Origin: Thermoproteota archaeon
GTDB taxonomy: Archaea; Thermoproteota; Nitrososphaeria_A; Caldarchaeales; Calditenuaceae
Direction of reading: 5' to 3'
DNA length: 64,000 nucleotides
NCBI GenBank assembly: GCA_030550235.1
Contig: JAUQPU010000002.1
Span: 231,164 to 295,163, forward strand
Part shown: piece by piece, positions 40,149 through 55,254 of the stretch
How positions within the stretch are numbered: position 1 is the first letter of the stretch
Layout: every line of letters begins with the position of its first letter
The notes under the pieces: generated by a model
Databases searched by the model: none
What the model was told of the DNA's origin: nothing
Seen by the model: only the letters and a program-made list of their open reading frames with translations
Made by a program: the position numbers and the translations under genes

Positions 40149-40292
40149 ATGAAGCTGATAAGTGTTAAGCTCCCAGAAGCATTAATAGAGGGGATGGATG
40201 AGCTTGTAAAAAAGAAGATCTACCCGAGCCGCTCAGCCATTCTAAGAGCCGCGGTAAGGGATTTGCTTAAGAAAGAGCTTTGGACTGAGTGA
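40149..40292 (+). CDS. ribbon-helix-helix (CopG/NikR-N-like) DNA-binding protein of 47 aa, absent from the ORF track because it is short
   Basis: Translation MKLISVKLPEALIEGMDELVKKKIYPSRSAILRAAVRDLLKKELWTE is a textbook RHH (beta-strand, helix, helix). Confidence 0.6.
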   Translation: MKLISVKLPEALIEGMDELVKKKIYPSRSAILRAAVRDLLKKELWTE

Positions 40293-40368: not shown

Positions 40369-41382
40369 GTGAAGCCTAGACTTGGCATGAGGCTGCGGAT
40401 GGTGATTCCTAAAGGGTCGCTTGAGAAGGGGTCGATTGAGCTGCTTGAGAAGGCCTTCTACAAGGTGGAGGGGTACGAGAGGAGCTACAACCCACTAGTT
40501 AGTGATAGGGAGATAGACCTTAGGGTTCTGAGGCCTCAGGAAATCCCCGTGTATATTGCTGAGGGGTTGTTTGATGTAGGGATAACTGGGCGAGACTGGG
40601 TTGAGGAGACAGGTGCCGATGTGAAGATTCTAAGGAATTTAGAGTTTGGGAAGGTCAAGCTTGTCTTCGCCGCTCCAGTCTCCCACAATTACGAGAGTCT
40701 GAACCATTTCCTAGAGAAGAACCTCTCAAACGGCAGGCCCGTGAAGATTGCAACGGAGTATCTCAACATTACAATGAGTAGGGTCATGTCGGCTGAGGCA
40801 TATAGGGCTAGGTTCGGCTCCAAGAAGCCCATGATAATAACGCCGTGGTATAGATACGGTGAGAACCCCAGCGTCTCGATACTACTATCCTTTGGGGCGA
40901 CTGAGGCTAAGCCCCCTCTTGCAGCAGATGCCATAGTGGATAATACAGAAACTGGAAGGACGCTTGAGCAGAATAACCTAGCCATAGTGGAGGAGTTGAT
41001 GGAGAGCTCCGCCCACCTGGTTGCAAATAGGCAGGCCCTCGAGGATGAGTGGAAGCGTGAAAAGATATACGACATCCTAACGATGTTTACCGGAGTAATC
41101 GAGTCTGAGAAGAAGCTTCACATATTCTTGAACGTGAGGGAGGAGAACCTGGGGGAGCTCTTAGCCACGCTTCCAGCCCTCAAGTCCCCCACAATCAACA
41201 AGCTATCGATGGAGGGCTGGTATGCCGTGAACACCGTCATAGACAAGACAGAGCTCCACAGGATACTCCCCAAGCTAAGGAGGCTCGCCCAAGGCCTGGT
41301 TGCGCACAGGCCCGAGCTCATCCTTCCTCTAGAGGAGATTGGGCATGAGGGTGGAGAAAATCTCGGGGGAAAACGCGGCTGA
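40369..41382 (+). CDS. hisG: ATP phosphoribosyltransferase
   Basis: GRDW, ATEYLNIT and LSFGATEAKPPLAADAIVD motifs. Long-form HisG with C-terminal regulatory domain. The start is possibly at MRLRMVIP. Confidence 0.85.
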   Translation: MKPRLGMRLRMVIPKGSLEKGSIELLEKAFYKVEGYERSYNPLVSDREIDLRVLRPQEIPVYIAEGLFDVGITGRDWVEETGADVKILRNLEFGKVKLVFAAPVSHNYESLNHFLEKNLSNGRPVKIATEYLNITMSRVMSAEAYRARFGSKKPMIITPWYRYGENPSVSILLSFGATEAKPPLAADAIVDNTETGRTLEQNNLAIVEELMESSAHLVANRQALEDEWKREKIYDILTMFTGVIESEKKLHIFLNVREENLGELLATLPALKSPTINKLSMEGWYAVNTVIDKTELHRILPKLRRLAQGLVAHRPELILPLEEIGHEGGENLGGKRG

Positions 41383-42634
41383 GGTGGCCCGGCTTTTAAG
41401 AGCAAGGGGCAGCCAGACAGGCAAAATTAGCGAGGCTGTGATGGAGATAATCGAGTCTGTCAGGCGCGAGGGCGATCATGCTCTATTGAGGCTAGCTGAG
41501 GAGCTTGACGGTGTACACATGAGCCGCGACGAACTCATATCAACGAGGCAGGAGGCTAGGGAGGCCTTTGAGAACTCCCCCGAGAGGCTAGTCTCAGCTA
41601 TGAAGAGTCTGAGGAGGAGGTTGCTGAGGGTTGAGAAGAGGCTCTATAGGCGCCTATCACTGAAGATAGTTGATGGCGCCTGCAGTGTTGAGATTAGACC
41701 CGTGGCAATAGAGTCTATTGGATGCTACGCGCCTGGCGGCTCGGCATCCTACCCCTCGACGGTCCTCATGATGGGCGTTCCTGGGCTTGTCGCAGGGGTC
41801 GAGCGCCTTGTTCTAGCCACACCGCCGCGTAAAAGGGAGGAAGATAGACGGACTGTCCTAGCCGCCTCATATCTGGCCGGATATAGGGAGATACTTTGGG
41901 CCGGTGGCGCACAGGCTATAGCCGCCCTGGCCTATGGTACAGAATCTGTCCGGAGAGTGGAGAAGATAGTTGGGCCTGGGAATAGATACGTCCTGGAGGC
42001 TAAGCTGGCTGTTTCGCGGGATGTCGCTGTTGACTTTACAGCAGGGCCGACTGAGCTGCTCGTAGTCCTCGACCACTCGGCACCCGCCAGGCAGGTTGCT
42101 CTAGAGATGGCTGCACAGGCAGAGCATAGCCCAGACACATTAATAGGGGCCCTAGCCCTCGACCAGGAGTCTGAGGCCGCAATCCTCGAGAGCCTCTCAG
42201 ACCTCTTGAAGCATCTACCCGAGGACTCCCAAGCCCGGGTCTCGCTTCAAAGGAACGGGTTCGTATGCACAGCTGATAGCTGGGAGGCTGCCGTACGCTT
42301 CATAAACAACCTCGCACCAGAGCACCTTCTCCTATACGCCAAGTCAGAGAGAGGATCCATAAAGGATATACGCAGCGCAGGGGTCGTGAGCTATGGCCGA
42401 CACCCCTCAGGAGTCTTTCTAGACTATTACGCCGGCCCAAATCATGTTTTGCCGACTGATGGTGTGGCATCCATAAGAGGTGGGCTCTCGGTCCTAGACT
42501 ATGTGAAGCTGCTAACTACTGTTAGGCCGACGAGGGCTGGGCTGAGGCGCGCCTTGAGGGATATGCGTGAGCTGATAATGGCTGAGGGGCTTCCACTACA
42601 CCTTAGGGCCTTGGAGGAGGTTGTAGGCGGTTGA
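41339..42634 (+). CDS. hisD: histidinol dehydrogenase
   Basis: GPGNRYV and AGPTELLVV motifs; the Zn-binding His/Asp region matches HisD-like spacing. Confidence 0.85.
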   Translation: MGMRVEKISGENAAEVARLLRARGSQTGKISEAVMEIIESVRREGDHALLRLAEELDGVHMSRDELISTRQEAREAFENSPERLVSAMKSLRRRLLRVEKRLYRRLSLKIVDGACSVEIRPVAIESIGCYAPGGSASYPSTVLMMGVPGLVAGVERLVLATPPRKREEDRRTVLAASYLAGYREILWAGGAQAIAALAYGTESVRRVEKIVGPGNRYVLEAKLAVSRDVAVDFTAGPTELLVVLDHSAPARQVALEMAAQAEHSPDTLIGALALDQESEAAILESLSDLLKHLPEDSQARVSLQRNGFVCTADSWEAAVRFINNLAPEHLLLYAKSERGSIKDIRSAGVVSYGRHPSGVFLDYYAGPNHVLPTDGVASIRGGLSVLDYVKLLTTVRPTRAGLRRALRDMRELIMAEGLPLHLRALEEVVGG

Positions 42635-43803
42635 CACTCACCAAATATTATAAGATACAGGGGGAGGCGCCAGCATACATTCTCAGGGAGTCGGCAGACA
42701 TTCTCAGAAAACTAGACTCCATACTCTTCGACTGCGACGGAGTCCTAATAGACACTAGGGAGAGCTACGATAAGGCAATAATCAAAACCATTACAATAAT
42801 CTATGAGCGGATTCTAAACATAGAGCTTATCGCATCTACAGTGAGCAACAGCCACATCTACCTTCTCAGGTCAACTGGAGGATTCAACAACGACACAGAC
42901 ACAACATACGTTCTAGCCCTCTGGCTTTTTACGGGGTTGCCGAGGAGTAGGGCCGAGGTGGTTCAGGAGCTTGAATTTGTGGTTAATGGCACTGGAAACC
43001 CCCGTAAGCTCCTAGACGATGTCTCTCAGATCGTCGCAGCCAGAACAGGATACCTCAGGCACGAGATTCAACCAAATCCCCCGCCCCTCGAGCAGGTGGT
43101 ATCAGAGTCCATAAGACGTACTGGACGGCAAATCCTATCAGTCGAGGACCTAGAGCAGACCATAGGGGAGTTTGCAGAGCGTAGAGGCCTTCTGCCCCTC
43201 TTCGAGAAATTCAAGCAGGTAATCGGGAGGCCTGGGAGGTATGGCGAGGGCATAGTGGAGACCCTCTTCTGCGACCTCTACTACGGCCCAGAGAATGTGA
43301 GGAGGATCTTCGGCAGGGAGAGCCACTTCGACCTAGGGCCGGGGATGTATCTGAATGAGAGGATAAATGTGAAGGAGTCTACATTAGCACGGCTTGCTGA
43401 GAAAATTGGAGTGGAGAGGATGAGCATAGTCAGCGGCAGGGATAAGATATCTACAGAGATTGTGCTGGGAGGCTTGATGAGATACTTTAACAGGAATGCC
43501 TGCGTCTTCCTCGCCGACGAGTACCGGGTGGTTGGTGAGATGGTTAAGAAACCTAGCCCGTATGGGATTCTTAAGGCTATTACGCGGATGGATGGCGCCT
43601 CTACGCCCATCTATCTTGGTAACTCTGCTGAGGACCTGTTCATGTCGCGGAGCGTTGACAAGTATGGCTACAGGACACTATTCGGCGCCGTGATAGGTCT
43701 CGCCCCTAACCCAACAGAGTCTATCGAGTTCTTCGCATCACTTGGCTCGGACGCTATACTCGTAAGCCCAGACGACCTCGTCAAGCTTTGGAGGATGATT
43801 TGA
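42631..43803 (+). CDS. HAD-superfamily hydrolase with large cap insertion; candidate histidinol-phosphate phosphatase
   Basis: HAD motif I LFDCDGVLIDT at the N-terminus and a motif IV-like GNSAEDL near the C-terminus. Embedded between hisD and hisB with overlapping stops and starts. Confidence 0.55.
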   Translation: MTLTKYYKIQGEAPAYILRESADILRKLDSILFDCDGVLIDTRESYDKAIIKTITIIYERILNIELIASTVSNSHIYLLRSTGGFNNDTDTTYVLALWLFTGLPRSRAEVVQELEFVVNGTGNPRKLLDDVSQIVAARTGYLRHEIQPNPPPLEQVVSESIRRTGRQILSVEDLEQTIGEFAERRGLLPLFEKFKQVIGRPGRYGEGIVETLFCDLYYGPENVRRIFGRESHFDLGPGMYLNERINVKESTLARLAEKIGVERMSIVSGRDKISTEIVLGGLMRYFNRNACVFLADEYRVVGEMVKKPSPYGILKAITRMDGASTPIYLGNSAEDLFMSRSVDKYGYRTLFGAVIGLAPNPTESIEFFASLGSDAILVSPDDLVKLWRMI

Positions 43804-44384
43804 TGGAGAGGCGTGGGAGCTCAGTCACACGGAAGACTGGAGAGACGAAGATAACAGTCAGCCTAACTCTAGACGGTGAGGGTGCTTTTAGAGGCTCAAC
43901 AGGCATAAAGTTCTTCGACCACATTCTCTCCCTTCTTGCATATCACAGCTTCATGGACCTGTCTATCGAGGCTGAGTGGGATCTCAAGCACCATGGCGTG
44001 GAAGATGTTGGTATAGTATTAGGCCAGGCCATGGGAGAGGCTCTGGGAGAGCGTGAAGGAATAGCTAGGTTCGGATACGCCCTCATCCCGATGGACGAGG
44101 CCCTAGCCGAGGCTTCGGTAGACCTGGTGAGGAGGCCACACATCAAGGTGGACCTCAGCCTATCAAACCCATCCATAGAAGACATGGCTGCGGAAGACAT
44201 AGTCCACTTCCTACAGTCGCTCGCCAACTCAATCCCAGCCGTAATCCACGTCAACGTGAGGTATGGCCTAAATGACCACCACCGCGTCGAGGCGGCAGTC
44301 AAGGCCCTCGCGGTAGCCTTTAGAAACGCCTGGCAGAGAGAGCCGAGGAGGAGGGGGCCGCCAAGCAGCAAGGGCATGGTGTAG
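43788..44384 (+). CDS. hisB: imidazoleglycerol-phosphate dehydratase
   Basis: RKTGETKI...LDGEG N-terminus and HH/EA metal motifs typical of IGPD. Confidence 0.85.
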   Translation: MEDDLMERRGSSVTRKTGETKITVSLTLDGEGAFRGSTGIKFFDHILSLLAYHSFMDLSIEAEWDLKHHGVEDVGIVLGQAMGEALGEREGIARFGYALIPMDEALAEASVDLVRRPHIKVDLSLSNPSIEDMAAEDIVHFLQSLANSIPAVIHVNVRYGLNDHHRVEAAVKALAVAFRNAWQREPRRRGPPSSKGMV

Positions 44385-44388
44385 ATGG

Positions 44389-44982
44389 ATGAAGGTTGGG
44401 ATACTGAACCTCGGCCTCAGCAACCTCTTCAGCATAACCTCCGCGGTCAAGAAACTAGGAGCAGAAGTTATCCTACTCGAGCAGCCTACCACCGAGATAG
44501 ACGCCCTAGTCTTCCCAGGGGTCGGAAACTTCATGGAGGGAGCGCGCAGGACCCAGGGGATCATGGGGGAGTTGCTGGACTATATCAGCTCCGGGGCCCC
44601 CTACCTCGGTGTATGTCTTGGGATGCAGTTGCTATTTGAGTCGAGTGAGGAGGGCCCTGGGGATGGGCTGGGCTTCTTCAGGGGAGAAGTTAGGCGTCTT
44701 AGGGCGGCTAAGGTCCCCCATATGGGCTGGAACAAGATAACACCAGTCAGGCCCTCGCCACTGATTGAGGATGTCCAGCCCGGTGAGTATGCCTACTTCA
44801 TGCACTCCTACGCACCTAGGCCAGTAGAGGAGCGAATAGTAATCGCCATAACCAGCTATGGAGAGGACTTTCCCTCGATTGTAGGTGGTGGAGCCGTCTT
44901 CGGGACGCAGTTCCACCCTGAAAAATCTGGGAGGACGGGTGAAAAGATACTTAAAAACTATCTCCAAGCCGCTAAGCGTTGA
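44389..44982 (+). CDS. hisH: imidazole glycerol phosphate synthase glutaminase subunit
   Basis: Class I GATase triad: GVCLGMQLL and the HPE C-terminal motif (QFHPEKS). Confidence 0.85.
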   Translation: MKVGILNLGLSNLFSITSAVKKLGAEVILLEQPTTEIDALVFPGVGNFMEGARRTQGIMGELLDYISSGAPYLGVCLGMQLLFESSEEGPGDGLGFFRGEVRRLRAAKVPHMGWNKITPVRPSPLIEDVQPGEYAYFMHSYAPRPVEERIVIAITSYGEDFPSIVGGGAVFGTQFHPEKSGRTGEKILKNYLQAAKR

Positions 44983-45041: not shown

Positions 45042-46121
45042 ATGGAGATTCCGGGGAAGGCTGCAGAGCTATGGGTGGCCGAGGCTGGGAGGATTAAGTG
45101 CACAGCATGCGCCCGCTACTGCCGCCTATCCGACAACCAGGTAGGCCTATGCGGGGTGAGAGGGGTCCACGACGGAAAGCTATACCTCCACGTCTACGGC
45201 AGAATAATAGCGAGCCATGTCGACCCAATAGAGAAGAAGCCAGTCACACACTTCATGCCCGGAACTAGAATATTCAGCATAGCGACGACAGGCTGCAACT
45301 GGCTCTGCCAGTACTGCCAGAACTTCGATATAAGCCAGAGGAGGAAGGTGGAGGGGATTGAGGTGACGCCGCGCCAAGTTGTCGAACACGCCATAAGATA
45401 TGGCTCACACGGAATCGCATACACTTACAACGAGCCTACAATCTTCATGGAGTTTGCAAGGGATATAGGCCTCGAGGCAAAGCGGAGCGGCCTCTTCAAT
45501 ATCTTCGTAACAAATGGTTACTGGACACCAGAGTCTGTAGCCATGGCTGGGACATTCCTCGACTCCGCGACAGTGGACTTCAAGGGTAATGGAGAGCGAG
45601 GGTTTGTGAGAAGATACATAGGGATACCGGACGTAGAGCCTATCTTTCAGACACTCCTCGAGATGAAGGAGAAGACGAGAATACATATCGAAATAACTGA
45701 CCTGGTCGTGCCCGAGATAGGGGACGATCTAAATGCGGCGAGAAAGCTTGTGAGATGGGTTCATGACAACCTAGGCCCAGACACACCCATTCATTTCCTC
45801 AGATTCCACCCGGACTACAAGCTCATGCACCTACCATGGACCCCCGTCGAAACCCTAGAAGCCCATTGGAAAATAGCGAAGGAGGAGGGGATGAACTACG
45901 CCTACATAGGTAATGTGCCCGGACATCCATACGAGCATACATACTGCCCAGGCTGCGGATATATAGTCGTGGAGCGGCTCGGCTTCGACATAATAGAATG
46001 GCGCCTAACACATGAGAACAAATGTCCAAGATGCGGCTACAAAATAGCGATAACTGGTAGGCCGCCGCAGCAAGGGCTCAAGAAAAGCAGATTCATACCA
46101 GTCCACTGGAATCTGACCTAA
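45042..46121 (+). CDS. AmmeMemoRadiSam-system radical SAM enzyme (PFL-activase-like)
   Basis: CNWLCQYCQN radical SAM cluster motif and TNGYW. C-terminal Cys pairs CPGCG...CPRCG. Confidence 0.7.
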   Translation: MEIPGKAAELWVAEAGRIKCTACARYCRLSDNQVGLCGVRGVHDGKLYLHVYGRIIASHVDPIEKKPVTHFMPGTRIFSIATTGCNWLCQYCQNFDISQRRKVEGIEVTPRQVVEHAIRYGSHGIAYTYNEPTIFMEFARDIGLEAKRSGLFNIFVTNGYWTPESVAMAGTFLDSATVDFKGNGERGFVRRYIGIPDVEPIFQTLLEMKEKTRIHIEITDLVVPEIGDDLNAARKLVRWVHDNLGPDTPIHFLRFHPDYKLMHLPWTPVETLEAHWKIAKEEGMNYAYIGNVPGHPYEHTYCPGCGYIVVERLGFDIIEWRLTHENKCPRCGYKIAITGRPPQQGLKKSRFIPVHWNLT

Positions 46122-47613: not shown

Positions 47614-47839
47614 TCTCATAACTCAAGTCTCCTCAGCTCTGTTGCAATTATTATGCCGCGTCTCATCAAATATTACAGCAATGCTCGTGAAGTTATCTGG
47701 CACAGCAACATACAGTATGTCACGCGACACTTGATACGCTACAGGCATGCCAGGTAATTTTTGCATAAATTTTTTAATAAGTATGGGATTTTCCATGACA
47801 ATGGTCTGTCGCATATCTACGTTATGGAAGTATCGTGAC

Positions 47840-48844
47840 ATGAGGACATTAATTATAGAGAACTCACGCATACGGTTAGTTATACTATTAGATAAAGGGG
47901 CCGACATAATAGAACTGAGATATAAGCCATTGGATCTGGATCTCATGTGGCATTCACCAACCGGTTGGAGAAACCCGGTAATGGAGACCTCGCCTAACCC
48001 AAATAATATGGGAGGGTTCCTTGATTACTATGGAGGAGGATGGCAGGATATTGTGCCTTCCGCCGGTGGAGCAAGTGTAACACACAGGGGCGCAGCTCTT
48101 GGGATACATGGAGAATCTTCCATGCTTCCATGGAGCTGTGAAATTTTAGAGGACGGTGTGGAAGAAGTTTCCGCCCACCTATGGGTTGAAGGTGTCAGAT
48201 ACCCCTTTAGACTTGATAAGTGGATAGAGGTAAGACGGGATGAAGAGAAGCTCTACGTGAGGGAGAGACTCTCAAACCCTAGTAATCAGGCGCTTGAATA
48301 TTCGTGGCTTCAGCATCCCTCATTTGGGGAGCCATTCCTAGAGCCCAAATGTAAAATACGGATACCTACACCCGCAGAGGTTATAGTTTTGGAGGGGGAG
48401 CACCTCGGCAGACTCCAGCCAGGAACATATGAGTGGCCTACAGTCGCCGGAAAGGATGGCAAACCCATCGATTTGAGCATAATACCTTCCAGAGAGATTG
48501 TGGCTGAGGAGACTTCCTTCATAGCGAATATGAGAGAGGGATGGTACATACTTTCGAACCCCAAGCTAGACCTGGGGTTTGGACTCGCATGGGACATAGG
48601 TGTGTATAGGTACCTATGGTTCTGGCAGAACTACAATGCGCCTGATTATCCTTGGTATGGCACCGCATGGAATATCGCACTTGAACCTTGCACAAGCTAT
48701 CCCGGAGGCCTCCCAGCCCAGATACAGAGAAAAACGCACATAACCATCCCTCCAAAAGGGCACCTTGAGACCTCACTAACAGCATTCGTACTAAGCAACC
48801 CAGAGAAGATAGGCAAACTAGACGTCAGAGGCGAAAGCGAGTAG
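47840..48844 (+). CDS. galactose-mutarotase-fold (aldose-1-epimerase-like / DUF4432-like) protein; the ORF track starts it at 47747, but ATG at 47840 (MRTLIIEN) is more plausible
   Basis: LDLMWHSPTGW...GGGWQDIVPSAGG...HGESS...W pattern of mutarotase-like beta-sandwich enzymes. Followed by sugar oxidoreductases. Confidence 0.5.
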   Translation: MRTLIIENSRIRLVILLDKGADIIELRYKPLDLDLMWHSPTGWRNPVMETSPNPNNMGGFLDYYGGGWQDIVPSAGGASVTHRGAALGIHGESSMLPWSCEILEDGVEEVSAHLWVEGVRYPFRLDKWIEVRRDEEKLYVRERLSNPSNQALEYSWLQHPSFGEPFLEPKCKIRIPTPAEVIVLEGEHLGRLQPGTYEWPTVAGKDGKPIDLSIIPSREIVAEETSFIANMREGWYILSNPKLDLGFGLAWDIGVYRYLWFWQNYNAPDYPWYGTAWNIALEPCTSYPGGLPAQIQRKTHITIPPKGHLETSLTAFVLSNPEKIGKLDVRGESE

Positions 48845-48923
48845 CTTACATCAGTGTTCAACCCCGTATTTTAACAATATTGTGAGAACAAATATTATAT
48901 ACCGGTTTCCCAGATAGCCAGTT

Positions 48924-49955
48924 GTGGCGGCTAAAATTACTGTTGCAATATTGGGATACGGATTCATGGGCTCTACACACGCTGATGCTTGGCGCTTGAT
49001 TGATGGATGCGTTGTTAAAGGTGTTTGGGCGAGGGACAATTCAAAGACATCAAAGTTCGCATCAGAACGCGGAATCAAGGCTTATTCCTCATTTAGCGAT
49101 GTCTTGGACGACAAAGAAGTTGACGTAGTTGACATATGCACGCCAACATACACTCATGCCGAGTACGCCATACAGGCGTTGAAGTCTGGTAAGCACGTAA
49201 TAGTTGAGAAGCCCATGGCACTGAGCCTAGCAGATGCAGATAAAATGATTCATGCTGCGGATGAAAGCGGAATGAAGTTGATGGTGGCCCACGTTCTAAG
49301 GTTTTTCCCAGAATATATGAAGGTGAAGGAATTGGTAGACGAGGGTAAGCTCGGCGAGATATGCCAGGCTAGGGCTTTTAGAGGAGGCGCTTTTCCTGAA
49401 TGGAGCCCGTGGTTTGGTGAGGTTGAGAAGAGTGGGGGCGTGGCCGTTGATACTGCAATACACGATGTGGACTACATAACTTGGATTAGCTCAGGCATCC
49501 CCCAACGAGTATACGCAAAGATTAGGCGCGGAGCTAAAGAAGCCTCAGCTAAATATGAAATCGCCTTCATAAACGTGAGATATAAGAATGGAATGATAGC
49601 CTTCATTGAGGCAAGCTGGGCGCATCCACCCTCATTCCCCTTCACGATGAAGCTAGAGCTGGACGGCACCGAAGGAACGGTAACATTGGACAACCAGTCC
49701 CCAGTCCCTATCTCGCTATTCTCGCGAACTATAAGGCAAGGATATGCACCAGAGTCTCTACCTTGGAAGCCTATGGTGCATCCATTCCCGCTTGACCCAT
49801 TCTACCGCGAGCTATCACATTTTGTAGACTGCGTTAGAAACGACAAGACACCAATGACAGACGGGAGAGCGTCGCGGAGAAGCTTGGAGGTGTGCCTCGC
49901 GAGCGTGAAATCTGCAGAGACAGGTAGGCCAGTTGAGCTACCATTCGTGGGGTGA
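48924..49955 (+). CDS. Gfo/Idh/MocA-family NAD(P)-dependent oxidoreductase (paralog 1)
   Basis: N-terminal Rossmann ILGYGFMGSTHA and the EKP motif (VIVEKPMA). Confidence 0.8.
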   Translation: MAAKITVAILGYGFMGSTHADAWRLIDGCVVKGVWARDNSKTSKFASERGIKAYSSFSDVLDDKEVDVVDICTPTYTHAEYAIQALKSGKHVIVEKPMALSLADADKMIHAADESGMKLMVAHVLRFFPEYMKVKELVDEGKLGEICQARAFRGGAFPEWSPWFGEVEKSGGVAVDTAIHDVDYITWISSGIPQRVYAKIRRGAKEASAKYEIAFINVRYKNGMIAFIEASWAHPPSFPFTMKLELDGTEGTVTLDNQSPVPISLFSRTIRQGYAPESLPWKPMVHPFPLDPFYRELSHFVDCVRNDKTPMTDGRASRRSLEVCLASVKSAETGRPVELPFVG

Positions 49956-50967
49956 GGAAATGGGCAGCCTATTTAAAGTTGGATTTTTAGGGGTAGCGCA
50001 TTTCCACGCTGACAGCTACGCGAGAGCACTTAGAAAACTGCCAGACACTGAGATAGTAGGTGCCTTTGATGACGACACATCCCTTGGTAAGAAATTCTGT
50101 GAGGACTTCAAGACAGAATACTACAGAAGCGCCTCGCAGCTACTCGATAAAGAATTGGATGCAGTCATAATAACATCTGAGAACTTTAAACACTATGAAT
50201 GCATAATACAGGCCTTGGATAAGGGCTTAAACATTCTGTGCGAAAAACCCATGACCACAAATCTGCGCGACGCTGAAGATGTAGTGGCTCGGGTAGAGAA
50301 ACAGAAGGTTGTGTTTCAGATGTGCTATGTCATGAGATATCATACAGTATCCTCGCTTGTAAAAGAGCTCATAGACTCGGGGGGCGTTGGAAAGCTGATC
50401 TCACTAGTTGGCACGAATAAGCTTAACAGGTCTCTACCCCTGCTTAGGAGGTGGTTTACTGACCCAAGACTATCTGGGGGCGGCGCTGTGATGGACCACA
50501 CAGTCCATCTAGCTGACCTGATGAGATGGTATACGGGCGATGAGGTGGATGAAGTCTATACCGAGATAGGGAAAAAAGTGAATAACAGCCTCATGGTGGA
50601 GGACAACTTCTTCACAACTATTCGTTTTAGGGGGGATGTGATAGGACACATTGACGGGAGTTGGACATATGCCTCAGGCCTCTATACGTGGGGTGACGTG
50701 AGGATGGAGATTGTGGGTACCGACGGCGCCTTATTCATGGACGCTTTTCGGCAAAACGTGTACTATATAGGAGACAGGCAGCCAAACGATAAATTATCCT
50801 GGAGCTACTATGGGTGCGATCCTGACCTAGCAATGATAACGGATTTTAAGAAGTGTGTACAGGAGAATAAACAGCCCAGAGCAACTGTAAAAGACGGCTA
50901 CGAGGGCGTTAGGATCTCACTCGCCAGCTATGAATCCAGCAGACGCGGGGCCCCTGTAAAGCCTTAA
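49933..50967 (+). CDS. Gfo/Idh/MocA-family oxidoreductase (paralog 2)
   Basis: VGFLGVAHFHADSYA Rossmann and ILCEKPMT. Confidence 0.8.
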   Translation: MSYHSWGEEMGSLFKVGFLGVAHFHADSYARALRKLPDTEIVGAFDDDTSLGKKFCEDFKTEYYRSASQLLDKELDAVIITSENFKHYECIIQALDKGLNILCEKPMTTNLRDAEDVVARVEKQKVVFQMCYVMRYHTVSSLVKELIDSGGVGKLISLVGTNKLNRSLPLLRRWFTDPRLSGGGAVMDHTVHLADLMRWYTGDEVDEVYTEIGKKVNNSLMVEDNFFTTIRFRGDVIGHIDGSWTYASGLYTWGDVRMEIVGTDGALFMDAFRQNVYYIGDRQPNDKLSWSYYGCDPDLAMITDFKKCVQENKQPRATVKDGYEGVRISLASYESSRRGAPVKP

Positions 50968-51025
50968 CTAGGCTCAAAAACCCTAACGAATGAGACAATA
51001 GACGTTCCCCAGCCTAGCCCCATGG

Positions 51026-51790
51026 CTATTTTGTTACGCGACTTATCTCTTCCGTAAGTGCGTTCACGAATAAGTTGAAAAGTTTCTCTCCCTTCTCCCT
51101 ACTTGCGAGTGTAGCATCTCCACATACGCCCGTCTTAAAATCACGACCAAGGAATCTCGAAGTAGTCAATATTCTAATGGCCTCGTTAAAGTTAGCAGTG
51201 GTCATGCCGCGGGGGATGAAATCCGGCACCTCCTTGACAGCCTTGCTCATATCCACTAGGTCAGGCCTCAGGAAGAGCATTAAACTCGTCTCCAACTCCT
51301 CCGCATGTATGAATATCTCCTCCTCAAGAATAGATGATAGAGTCTCCATACTAACTACCGTATATGGTGAGATATTATGTACTGTCATGCCGTGTAGATC
51401 ATGTGATGTATTAAGCCACTGTGTAACTGCAAACAAGTGGTAGATATGCCCAGCGTGCCCGGAAACAAGCACGAGGTGTTTAACACCATATTTTGAGACG
51501 CCCACCGCTATATCTCTGACCAATCTAACCAATGTTGATGGTCTAAGTGATATTGTACCCACCATTGGCAAATGGTCGTCTGAATAACCATAAGGTATGA
51601 GTGGTAAGACAGCAGCGTTTATCCTCTTAGCAACTTCCTTACAAAGCTCCCAAGCTATTATATGGTCAGTTCCGAGGGGTAGGTGTGGACCATGTTGCTC
51701 AGTACTACCAATGGGAAGCAAAGCAACCTTAGTCTGCTTGGTCAGCTCTGATAACTGCGTTGTAGATTTTTCAGCCCATAGCAGGGTCAT
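51026..51790 (-). CDS. creatininase-family amidohydrolase
   Basis: LLPIGSTEQHGPHLPLGTD and VLVSGHAGH metal-binding motifs. Length 254 aa. Confidence 0.75.
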   Translation of the reverse strand: MTLLWAEKSTTQLSELTKQTKVALLPIGSTEQHGPHLPLGTDHIIAWELCKEVAKRINAAVLPLIPYGYSDDHLPMVGTISLRPSTLVRLVRDIAVGVSKYGVKHLVLVSGHAGHIYHLFAVTQWLNTSHDLHGMTVHNISPYTVVSMETLSSILEEEIFIHAEELETSLMLFLRPDLVDMSKAVKEVPDFIPRGMTTANFNEAIRILTTSRFLGRDFKTGVCGDATLASREKGEKLFNLFVNALTEEISRVTK

Positions 51791-51918
51791 GCCTCTATCA
51801 AGCGTGCGAGTTATTTAAAAATTTTAGAAACATTGAAAGAAGAGCTCCATATCGCTCTTATTACCAACTTTGGCTAAATTTTTAAATACACCTCACTGAC
51901 CACACTTTTTGACGATAT

Positions 51919-53013
51919 ATGTCACGAAAATTGGGTGTATTAGTTCACGGCGCGGGCTGGGTCTCTACACAGCACATAGAAGCATATAAAAACAATCCAC
52001 ATACACGAGTAGTGGCTATCTCGAGTAGAAGGCTAGAGAGTGCTAGAAAGAGAGCAGAGGAGGCGGGTCTTCACGACGTCAAACTATATGACGATTATCA
52101 TAAGGCACTTGAAAATCCTGATGTTGATATAGTGTCTATTTGTACTCCCCAGCATCTCCATGCTCAAAACACCATAGATGCCGCAAAAGCCGGTAAGCAT
52201 ATGTTGATTGAGAAGCCGATAGCCAACTCGGTGGAGGAGATGAAAGCAATGAGAGATGCGGTCCGTAAAGCTAAAGTGAAGACGGTGGTTAGCTTTGTTT
52301 TAAGATGGAACCCATTATTTGAGGCGATAAAGATTCTGATATCGAGTGGATTCTTGGGGAAGATATACTACGTAGAAACCGACTATCAGAGTGCTATTGC
52401 TGCGTGGTGGTCTGGATATGAAGATGCACGAAAGAAAGAAACGGGGGTGAGCGCGTTCCTAGTTGGCGGCTGTCATGCCATAGATGCTATGAGGTGGTTT
52501 GCTAGTGAGGAGAGGTATGGAGCAGCAAAACCTATCGAGGTTTTCGCATACTCAGGAGGGCTTAGAAAAGGGAAGATAAGACAATGGAACTACTATAAAC
52601 AGAGATGGGAGGATATGCCACCCCTCGAATATGATGACCTGGAGGTCGCATTAGTAAAGTTCGATAATGGTGTTATTGGTAAAGTCTCGGTCAACTTCGG
52701 CGGTGTCCAACCGTACACATTCCCAATCGAGATATTTGGCGATCACGGCACTATAAAGGATAACAGGCTATGGTCAGCGAAGTTTGAGGGCAACCAGAAG
52801 GGGTGGATAACAATCCCCACAATATTGCCAGATAGCGCCGAGGTGACCCATCATCCATTCCAGCAAGAAATCGACCACTTTGTAGACTGCATCCTGAACG
52901 ATAGGGAGTCTCACTGTAATCTGGAGGACGCCATCAGAACGCATGAGGTAGCATTTGCGGCCCTTAAATGTTATGAGACTGGGAGGCCAGTTAGGCTGCC
53001 GCTGCTTGAGTAA
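51919..53013 (+). CDS. Gfo/Idh/MocA-family oxidoreductase (paralog 3)
   Basis: LVHGAGWVSTQH Rossmann and LIEKPIA. Confidence 0.8.
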   Translation: MSRKLGVLVHGAGWVSTQHIEAYKNNPHTRVVAISSRRLESARKRAEEAGLHDVKLYDDYHKALENPDVDIVSICTPQHLHAQNTIDAAKAGKHMLIEKPIANSVEEMKAMRDAVRKAKVKTVVSFVLRWNPLFEAIKILISSGFLGKIYYVETDYQSAIAAWWSGYEDARKKETGVSAFLVGGCHAIDAMRWFASEERYGAAKPIEVFAYSGGLRKGKIRQWNYYKQRWEDMPPLEYDDLEVALVKFDNGVIGKVSVNFGGVQPYTFPIEIFGDHGTIKDNRLWSAKFEGNQKGWITIPTILPDSAEVTHHPFQQEIDHFVDCILNDRESHCNLEDAIRTHEVAFAALKCYETGRPVRLPLLE

Positions 53014-53052
53014 ATATTTATATGATGTGAAAAGATAGCAAGTGTTGCAACT

Positions 53053-54144
53053 ATGGCTAAGCTTGAACTTGTCGGCCTCTATAAGAGATTTGGCGCTCAG
53101 GAGGCAGTTAAGAACCTCACACTAGTTGTTGAAGATGGGAAGATGGCTTGTCTACTAGGCCCCTCGGGCTGTGGGAAGACCACCACTTTAAGAATGGTGG
53201 CTGGCCTCGAGAAGCCTGATTCTGGAGACATCTACATCGGGGGTAAGAGAGTTAACGACCTCCCCCCATACGAGCGCAACATATCCATGGTATTCCAATT
53301 CTATGCTATCTATCCTGGAATGACAGTTTATGATAACCTGGCATTCCCCCTGAAGCAGAAAAAGATCCCGAAGGATGAGATAGATAGGCGTGTGAAAGAG
53401 ATTGCAGAAATATTGAGGATTAACCATATTCTAAAGGAGGATGCGATAAGGCTGCCTGCCGGAGAAAAACAGAGAATCGCTCTGGGAAGGGCCCTGATCA
53501 AGGAGCCTGAAATACTCCTACTTGACGAGCCTTTAACGAACCTTGATGCGCGGCTTAGGGCCGTTATGCGTAAAGAAATTAAGAGATTGCACCTCAAGCT
53601 GAAGACCACCACCTTATACGTCACCCACGACCAAATCGAGGCGATGACTATGGCGGACGTGATAGGAGTGATGAATCTAGGAGTATTGCAGCAATATGGT
53701 CCACCGCACGAGCTATATAACAAGCCCGCCAACATGTTTGTCGCAGGTTTCTTGGGAACCCCTCCTATGAACTTTCTGGACTTCTCCTATATAGTAAATG
53801 GAAAGAAATATTTTGATTTTGGCGAATTCAAGATCACGGACCCAGAGCTGTTAAACATGCTCCCATCTACGCTTGAGTCAAACGAGCTAGTACTAGGGAT
53901 AAGGCCTAAAGATGTCATAATCAGTTTTAACACTGAAGAATCCGACTCATACGGCTGGGAGATAAAGGTTGTGGAGCCTGTCGGGGACAAATATATCGTC
54001 TTTATGAGTCTTGGAGATAAATCCATAAGAGTGGTGGTCCCGGCGATAGAGCGGGGAATCGAAGTGGGAAAGAAGGTGGGCATAAGATTCAGGAAGGAGA
54101 CCATCCACATATTCGACAGGAAGACGGGAAATGCTATATTATAG
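53053..54144 (+). CDS. sugar ABC transporter ATP-binding protein (MalK/UgpC-type with C-terminal TOBE domain), NBD 1
   Basis: Walker A GPSGCGKTT, Walker B LLLDEPLTNLD, H-loop YVTHDQ. The signature is degenerate (LPAGEKQR in place of LSGGQ). Confidence 0.85.
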   Translation: MAKLELVGLYKRFGAQEAVKNLTLVVEDGKMACLLGPSGCGKTTTLRMVAGLEKPDSGDIYIGGKRVNDLPPYERNISMVFQFYAIYPGMTVYDNLAFPLKQKKIPKDEIDRRVKEIAEILRINHILKEDAIRLPAGEKQRIALGRALIKEPEILLLDEPLTNLDARLRAVMRKEIKRLHLKLKTTTLYVTHDQIEAMTMADVIGVMNLGVLQQYGPPHELYNKPANMFVAGFLGTPPMNFLDFSYIVNGKKYFDFGEFKITDPELLNMLPSTLESNELVLGIRPKDVIISFNTEESDSYGWEIKVVEPVGDKYIVFMSLGDKSIRVVVPAIERGIEVGKKVGIRFRKETIHIFDRKTGNAIL

Positions 54145-54165
54145 AATGATAGAGGGTATGGCGTT

Positions 54166-55254
54166 ATGGTAAGTGTCAGGTTGGAAAACGTCACTAAAAT
54201 AGTAGGGGGTAGACCGCTAGTTGACGACCTAACGCTCGACATAAAATCGGGTGAGCTCGTCGCCCTTTTCGGACCGCCGGGCTCAGGCAAGACTACAGTC
54301 CTTAGATTAATAGCTGGACTTGACACAGTCACTAGTGGAAAAATCTACATTGATGAACAGCTGGTCAACGATCTCAGCCCTGCCAGGAGGGAGGTGGGGA
54401 TGGTTTTCCAGAGCTTTGCATTATACCCTACCTACACGGTTTTCGACAACTTGGCATTCCCTCTAAGAAAGAAAGGGCTATCCCAGTCAGAGATAAAGAA
54501 TAGGGTAGAGGGTGTAGCTCAAAAGCTTGGCATAAGTCACCTACTGCAGAAGAAGCCTGCATTTCTAAGTGGCGGAGAGAAGCAGAGAGTTGCTATTGGT
54601 CGCGCGATAGTAAAGGAGCCGAAAGTCCTTCTAATGGATGAGCCCTTAACAAATCTTGACGCTAAGTTAAGGATACTAGTTAGGACCGAGATTAGAAGGC
54701 TTCAGCAGGAGCTTGGAATAACAACGATAGTAAGCACACCAGATGATCAAGAGGCACTATCTATAGCTGATAAGATAGCAGTCATGCGTCAAGGTAAGCT
54801 CATACAATACGCTGACACGCCCACAATCTATAATAAACCCTCGCACCTCTTCGTAGCCCAGAACATCGGGACCCCCCAGATAAACATAATTGAGGCAAAG
54901 TTGCTGACAGATGGTCAAACACCCCTTCTTGACCTAAAATTCACAAAGGTCAGAATACCTGAGAGTAGTCTAAACCTGAAGGAATATGTTGGAAAAGACG
55001 TTCTCGTCGGATTGAGACCGAGCGAGATAAGAGTGAGTAAGAATCCCTTGGGAGTCGAGCAGGTTAAGGTTAGAGTAGAGTTTATAGAACCTCTGGGGGC
55101 CGAATCTATTGTAACCCTATCAGCTGGGGAAGAGAGCTTAACAGCTGTAGTTCCCCCTGGCACACCCTTAGAGATTGGAGAAGAAGCCTATATGGAACTT
55201 GAAGGTGCTACTTTACACGTCTTCGACAAAGAGTCGGGCTTAGCCATAGTCTAG
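54166..55254 (+). CDS. second MalK-type ABC ATP-binding protein, NBD 2, with degenerate H-loop
   Basis: Walker A GPPGSGKTT, signature LSGGEKQR, Walker B LLMDEPLTNLD. The H-loop position reads VSTPDDQ, lacking the histidine. Confidence 0.8.
   Translation: MVSVRLENVTKIVGGRPLVDDLTLDIKSGELVALFGPPGSGKTTVLRLIAGLDTVTSGKIYIDEQLVNDLSPARREVGMVFQSFALYPTYTVFDNLAFPLRKKGLSQSEIKNRVEGVAQKLGISHLLQKKPAFLSGGEKQRVAIGRAIVKEPKVLLMDEPLTNLDAKLRILVRTEIRRLQQELGITTIVSTPDDQEALSIADKIAVMRQGKLIQYADTPTIYNKPSHLFVAQNIGTPQINIIEAKLLTDGQTPLLDLKFTKVRIPESSLNLKEYVGKDVLVGLRPSEIRVSKNPLGVEQVKVRVEFIEPLGAESIVTLSAGEESLTAVVPPGTPLEIGEEAYMELEGATLHVFDKESGLAIV

Follow-up and report, generated by a model that had tools for sequence, protein, structure and literature searches.

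A HAD-superfamily gene next to hisB in a Caldarchaeales his cluster probably encodes a histidinol-phosphate phosphatase of the nmHisN/toHisN lineage

Which enzyme would remove the phosphate from histidinol phosphate in the histidine biosynthesis (his) cluster of a Calditenuaceae archaeon (Thermoproteota; Caldarchaeales)? The question is raised by a stretch of 64,000 nt (GenBank assembly GCA_030550235.1, contig JAUQPU010000002.1; hereafter the window, whose coordinates are used throughout), in which a gene for a 390-aa protein of the HAD superfamily (C1-capped, IA-like; 42631-43803, + strand, TTG start) lies between hisD and hisB. A preliminary description, made from the letters of the window alone, had put this gene forward as a candidate for a missing histidinol-phosphate phosphatase (HolPase, step 8 of histidine biosynthesis). 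We consider it very probable that the gene, here called hisN, encodes a monofunctional HolPase of the nmHisN/toHisN lineage of the HAD superfamily. This assignment is supported by full-length homology to the nmHisN/toHisN family, by a YDRD specificity fingerprint accompanied by I50 and I76, and by a conserved position next to hisB. Judged by sequence and gene order, the candidate would therefore stand. The step itself cannot be called missing, since the family had already been assigned to it, in 2008 for Thermococcus and in 2024 for Thaumarchaeota and Bathyarchaeota. The window protein is a divergent member of an already known family, not a new enzyme class.

The reference point for the family is the work of Kinateder, Mayer, Nazet and Sterner (2024; Protein Sci 33:e4899, PMC10804674), who purified the product of Nmar_1556, an uncharacterized gene between hisC and hisB of Nitrosopumilus maritimus, and named it nmHisN. 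In vitro, the protein hydrolyzed histidinol phosphate (kcat of 0.79 s-1 and KM of 73 µM with Mg2+); nine further phosphoesters were not hydrolyzed. It is related to toHisN (TON_0887), a HolPase from Thermococcus onnurineus (Lee et al. 2008, cited through Kinateder et al. 2024), which has a single helical cap with seven helices, compared with nine in nmHisN. An alanine scan of nmHisN yielded the specificity fingerprint Y24-D25-K56-E64, with I28 and I52 as accessory residues; toHisN carries K56R and E64D (YDRD). The signatures YDKE, YDRD, and YDKD were all accepted as indicating a HolPase within the Thaumarchaeota and Bathyarchaeota cluster of a sequence similarity network (SSN) grouped at 45% identity, in which SSN cluster I is an operational group (Kinateder et al. 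2024).

Alignments with Nitrosopumilus, Bathyarchaeota, and closer relatives placed Y46, D47, R80, and D88 of the window protein at the fingerprint positions, which is the YDRD form of toHisN; the accessory isoleucines are I50 and I76. Column statistics agreed with the published analysis (Kinateder et al. 2024): the Y is invariant, the next position is usually D and otherwise chiefly N, and the last two positions are split between K and R and between E and D, respectively. Tt82 of T. thioreducens (PDB 6IAH) has Y-D...R...D in the same columns. Two Asgard homologs, from Jordarchaeia (L065, 4001-5212) and Freyarchaeota (L072, 4001-5212), sit in hisC-X-hisB clusters, carry F-I-K-D at the specificity positions, and have GDTVSD as motif IV; therefore, the published fingerprint is not universal among members of his clusters.

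The association with hisB proved to be widespread. In all 10 metagenome or metagenome-assembled genome (MAG) loci fetched by exact-protein look-up, a homolog lies directly upstream of hisB. These loci comprise Candidatus Calditenuaceae archaeon HR02, a 39%-identical Calditenuaceae MAG, a hot-spring relative (42%), a Bathyarchaeota MAG, a marine TARA lineage, Nitrosopumilus, a bacterium with Omp85/TamB neighbors, and three copies of the window's own region (L008-L010). A scan with one genome per species gave 80 loci, spanning Calditenuis, Caldarchaeum, Terraquivivens, Bathyarchaeia, Nitrososphaerales, Nitrosopumilales, Nitrosotalea, Jordarchaeia, Freyarchaeota, Blastocatellia, and Krumholzibacteriaceae, of which the 72 with at least 700 bp of downstream sequence were counted. 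The next gene was hisB in 67 of the 72, and the usual order was hisG-hisD-hisC-X-hisB-hisH-hisA-hisF-hisI. Absence of the gene from the his clusters of relatives, which the preliminary description had named as an outcome that would speak against its proposal, is thus clearly not what the two sets of loci show. Three of the five exceptions, a Nitrososphaerota MAG (L033) and two Ca. Caldarchaeum sp. (L036 and L069), retain both YDRD and GNSxED and therefore probably reflect dispersed his genes. The position upstream of hisB is conserved across Caldarchaeales, Bathyarchaeia, Nitrosopumilales, and Asgard archaea, and also in a few bacteria.

The bacterial members are mixed in context. Those with POTRA/Omp85/TamB neighbors (L005, 1372-2553) and from a Blastocatellia MAG (L021, 4001-5083) lie within complete his clusters and carry YDRD (confirmed for L021). 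The Krumholzibacteriaceae member (L077, 2348-3427), with Y-V-K-D, is not in a his cluster.

The protein is part of a large family. A large protein database held 596 homologs, and an exhaustive profile search returned 3358 representatives at E ≤ 1e-3 and 421 clusters (50% identity) at E ≤ 1e-30, so that the hisN feature is far beyond chance. Among the matches were 324-aa Nitrosopumilus proteins annotated as "HAD family hydrolase" (28%-33% identity, 97%-100% coverage); BLASTP against the Ca. N. salaria homolog of this length gave an E-value of 1e-44, with 29% identity over 379 columns. An identical protein is present in three Nitrososphaerota MAGs, in one of them on a 1.39-Mb contig (GCA_038736325.1). 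The closest named relative, from Ca. Calditenuaceae archaeon HR02, is 71% identical and has the same gene order; judged by its relatives, the source organism is probably thermophilic. In the PDB, a search with the single protein gave a weak match to 6IAH (E 9e-7), and a family profile was needed for a convincing match to the same entry (E 3e-25).

The catalytic motifs of the HAD superfamily are readily located. Motif I, LFDCDGVLIDT, occupies residues 32-42, near the N-terminus as the preliminary description had stated, and 261 of 264 aligned family sequences have its DxD (D34-C-D36), the remaining three being gapped there. Motif II is S268 in an I-V-S-G-R strand (S or T in 264/264), and motif III is K307 in K-K-P (invariant across the 264). 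The motif IV-like GNSAED that had been noticed toward the C-terminus was found again at residues 330-335 (G330-N331-S-A-E334-D335), with E334 nearly invariant and D335 conserved in the same 264 sequences.

An AlphaFold2 model based on a 66-sequence alignment (mean predicted local distance difference test [pLDDT] 92.7, predicted template modeling score 0.88) has a Rossmannoid core, a C1-type cap inserted after motif I, and a short N-terminal hairpin. The predicted cap module (residues ∼42-262, 42754-43416, + strand) comprises ∼220 mostly helical residues, with ∼12 helices between the strands of motifs I and II. The very large cap insertion reported at the outset is thus present. It is not unusual, however. 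Alignments delimit a variable sub-region (residues ∼100-188, 42928-43194, + strand) that has 88 residues in the window protein and 38 in the Nitrosopumilus proteins; at least 70 residues are found there in 82 of 144 representatives at 50% identity, and 380-400 aa is the largest length class. The long cap is the commonest form of the family, and the characterized enzymes therefore belong to a short-cap minority.

Is the long-cap clade with Asn in motif IV functionally distinct from the two characterized short-cap enzymes? The extra sub-domain of ∼50-90 residues (∼100-188) could dock onto HisD or HisB for direct hand-over of histidinol, or could confer regulation or thermostability, and the D-to-N change could alter the metal preference or the rate-limiting step. 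We found no positive pointer to such a distinction and regard it as quite improbable.

Several points weigh against the assignment as a HolPase. First, the published residue numbers were mapped through close homologs of 324 aa and not through the N. maritimus sequence itself, and the spacing is off by one residue: the nmHisN numbering differs from that of the 324-aa homologs by 17 before a short variable loop and by 18 after it, and the Y-to-K spacing is 33 in these homologs, 32 as published, and 34 in the window protein. The residue identities nevertheless make the mapping unambiguous despite this offset. Second, the identity to the Nitrosopumilus homologs falls below both the 45% threshold of the published network and the 40% used by GapMind. 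Bathyarchaeota members fall in the same 28%-33% range, the link to SSN cluster I is not reached, and the clade would therefore form an SSN cluster of its own; the 45% link serves to define clusters rather than function. Third, nmHisN and toHisN both have shorter caps than the window protein. Fourth, Asn (N331) stands at the position of the first motif IV Asp, which normally binds Mg2+. Finally, the genome may encode a PHP- or IMPase-type HolPase elsewhere. Three rival explanations follow from such points or from the annotation of the gene, and we judge them unlikely even when taken together.

The protein might be a HAD phosphatase with different or broad substrates that is merely located in the his cluster. 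Some automatic annotations do suggest phosphoglycolate or sugar phosphates as the substrate, and the curated models offer little that is more specific: Pfam PF00702 reached 27.3 bits over motif I only, and NCBIfam TIGR01548 (HAD-SF-IA-hyp1) reached 48.6 bits against a cut-off of 140.2, with residues 30-119 aligned. TIGR01548 is a hypothetical-equivalog model and was the best NCBIfam match for all 15 family members tested. However, the matches behind the other-substrate annotations are far below curated cut-offs and cover core motifs only, the cap fingerprint agrees with that of enzymes specific for histidinol phosphate, nmHisN is inactive on the other phosphoesters tried, and adjacency to hisB is kept across phyla down to ∼25%-30% identity. 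We therefore hold a different substrate to be very unlikely.

Alternatively, the Asn in motif IV could weaken or abolish catalysis, so that the protein of this clade would be a non-catalytic or regulatory partner of HisD or HisB and histidinol phosphate would be hydrolyzed by an enzyme encoded elsewhere. Asn occurs at this position in 48 of 264 sequences, essentially the window protein's own clade (≥38% identity), whose members share GNSxED; most of the family has GDSxED, including the Nitrosopumilus homologs of nmHisN, and Tt82 has GDTIND. Yet within the clade the Asn is conserved rather than variable, all other catalytic and specificity residues are intact, E334 and D335 included, and by general chemistry the side-chain oxygen of an Asn could still serve as a Mg2+ ligand. 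The genes of the Asn clade also keep their operon position (L001, L002, L004, and L012). Loss of catalysis thus appears highly improbable.

That the open reading frame (ORF) is an annotation artefact, or that a shorter product is made from an internal start, as the TTG start codon and a published nmHisN numbering implying an N. maritimus protein ∼17 residues shorter at its N-terminus than the 324-aa homologs might suggest, has a negligible chance given that the first 30 residues keep both their length and their sequence among 390-aa relatives and are modeled as a β-hairpin and helix with pLDDT 88-92, and that a GGAGG run lies 9 nt 5' of the TTG.

The gene boundaries fit a tightly packed cluster. 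Public gene calls give a hisN product identical to ours (100% identity and coverage). At the junction with hisD (42614-42634, + strand), a Shine-Dalgarno-like run, GGAGGAGG (42614-42621), ends 9 nt 5' of the TTG at 42631, and this start overlaps the hisD stop (TGA, 42632-42634) by 4 nt (TTGA). At the junction with hisB (43791-43805, + strand), GGAGG (43791-43795) precedes the hisN stop (TGA, 43801-43803) and a probable hisB start at ATG 43803-43805, which it precedes by 7 nt and which overlaps the hisN stop by 1 nt (TGATG). An overlap of 16 nt arises only with the longest hisB ORF, from TTG 43788. The spacing of the GGAGG, the public calls (a 193-aa protein starting at ATG 43803), and the NCBIfam models of imidazoleglycerol-phosphate dehydratase (IGPD), whose alignments start at residues 6-12 of the long version, make ATG 43803 the most likely start on sequence grounds. 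The packing of hisN and hisB is tight whichever hisB start is used. Of what had been described here, the 4-nt overlap with hisD thus holds, and the 16-nt overlap with hisB should probably be replaced by one of 1 nt.

Homology, residues, fold, and gene order are observed for the window protein, and its activity and specificity are inferred. Drawing on HAD chemistry and on the published alanine scan, we propose the following mechanism. Asp34 would attack the phosphate of L-histidinol phosphate, giving an aspartyl-phosphate intermediate, and Asp36 would act as general acid/base and protonate the leaving histidinol. Ser268 and Lys307 would hold the phosphate, and Mg2+ would be bound between motif I and motif IV (N331, E334, and D335). 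The helical cap would close over the active site, where Tyr46, Asp47, Arg80, and Asp88 may recognize the imidazole and amino moieties of histidinol phosphate and stabilize the transition state. The histidinol released would then be oxidized by HisD, encoded immediately upstream, and hisN is predicted to be translationally coupled to both hisD and hisB.

Pfam and NCBIfam models confirmed the gene order hisG-hisD-X-hisB-hisH that had been read around hisN. All of these genes are on the + strand: hisG (40369-41382) encodes a long-form ATP phosphoribosyltransferase with a HisG_C regulatory domain, hisD (41339-42634; 41345 is the start in public gene calls) histidinol dehydrogenase, hisB (43803-44384) a monofunctional IGPD without a fused phosphatase domain, and hisH (44389-44982) the glutamine amidotransferase subunit of IGP synthase. 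The overlap between hisG and hisD, 38-44 nt according to whether hisD begins at 41345 (public calls) or at TTG 41339 (longest ORF), exceeds the 1-4 nt that are usual for coupled genes. An ORF of 47 aa with a ribbon-helix-helix (RHH) domain (PF01402 RHH_1, CopG-like; 40149-40292, + strand) lies 77 nt 5' of hisG. This ORF is conserved in position in HR02 (L001, 5519-5662) as well as in all three MAG copies of the region (L008-L010), and its product may regulate transcription of the his genes.

A tblastn search of the 64-kb window detected none of hisA, hisF, hisI, hisE, and hisC; the his cluster is therefore split, with the remaining pathway genes outside the window. In the 42%-identity relative (L004) the cluster continues with hisA-hisF-hisI, and in both the window (45042-46121; TIGR04337, 324 bits) and HR02 hisH is followed by a radical SAM gene of the AmmeMemoRadiSam type. 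Farther downstream (47747-55254), the window holds a DUF4432 gene, three GFO/IDH/MocA oxidoreductases, a creatininase-family gene (named in the public calls of L008), and two MalK-like ABC ATPases. This group resembles an island for the catabolism of sugars or inositol-type compounds and is unrelated to hisN.

What would the assignment add? Among the steps of the histidine pathway, HolPase is the one that most often has no gene assigned: GapMind 2026 lacks it for 20% of prototrophs, and KEGG for two thirds of the histidine-producing archaea (Kinateder et al. 2024). Genomes of the Caldarchaeales/Aigarchaeota type would fill the step with the nmHisN/toHisN family, in which the long-cap form is the majority (at least 421 clusters at 50% identity). 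No curated model names the family, and public records therefore carry the labels "hypothetical protein" or "HAD family hydrolase." What is gained lies in better annotation and metabolic reconstruction of uncultured archaea rather than in a new biological principle, and the only fresh questions are the roles of the extended cap and of the motif IV Asn.

Among known systems, nmHisN is the natural comparison. It belongs to the same HAD lineage, can be aligned end to end with the window protein via the 324-aa Nitrosopumilus homologs, and shares with it a single large helical C1 cap, the motif I sequence FDCDGVLID, the SYD and (K/R)STGGFN segments, and a gene placed directly before hisB in a his cluster. 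The differences lie in the cap (∼12 helices compared with nine, in a protein ∼66 residues longer than the 324-aa homologs), the fingerprint (YDRD compared with YDKE), and motif IV (GNSAED compared with GDSMED). The window locus has no hisC between hisD and hisN, whereas the nmHisN gene lies between hisC and hisB. nmHisN melts at 37°C, whereas the source of the window protein is probably thermophilic. The Thermococcus proteins, namely toHisN, a monofunctional HolPase of the "DDDD superfamily," and its structural relative Tt82, are ∼240 aa long with a seven-helix cap, compared with which the window protein has ∼150 extra cap residues. PDB 1QYI (Staphylococcus aureus Q8NW41, structural-genomics target ZR25), the best structural match, was rejected as a guide to function because it is itself uncharacterized; it is 13%-15% identical and lacks the SYD and (K/R)xxGGFN fingerprint.

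The same reaction is carried out by the N-terminal domain of Escherichia coli HisB (HAD-IIIA), Pseudomonas aeruginosa PA0335 (a PSP-like HAD), the PHP-type HisJ/HisK, and the IMPase-type HisN. A relationship to the E. coli domain was considered and rejected, as the window protein did not match its model, TIGR01656 (Histidinol-ppas), at E ≤ 0.1. The E. coli domain and PA0335 share the superfamily and the Asp-nucleophile chemistry of the window protein, while the caps or folds of these other HolPases are unrelated to its own, and the other HolPase types were recruited independently (Kinateder et al. 2024).
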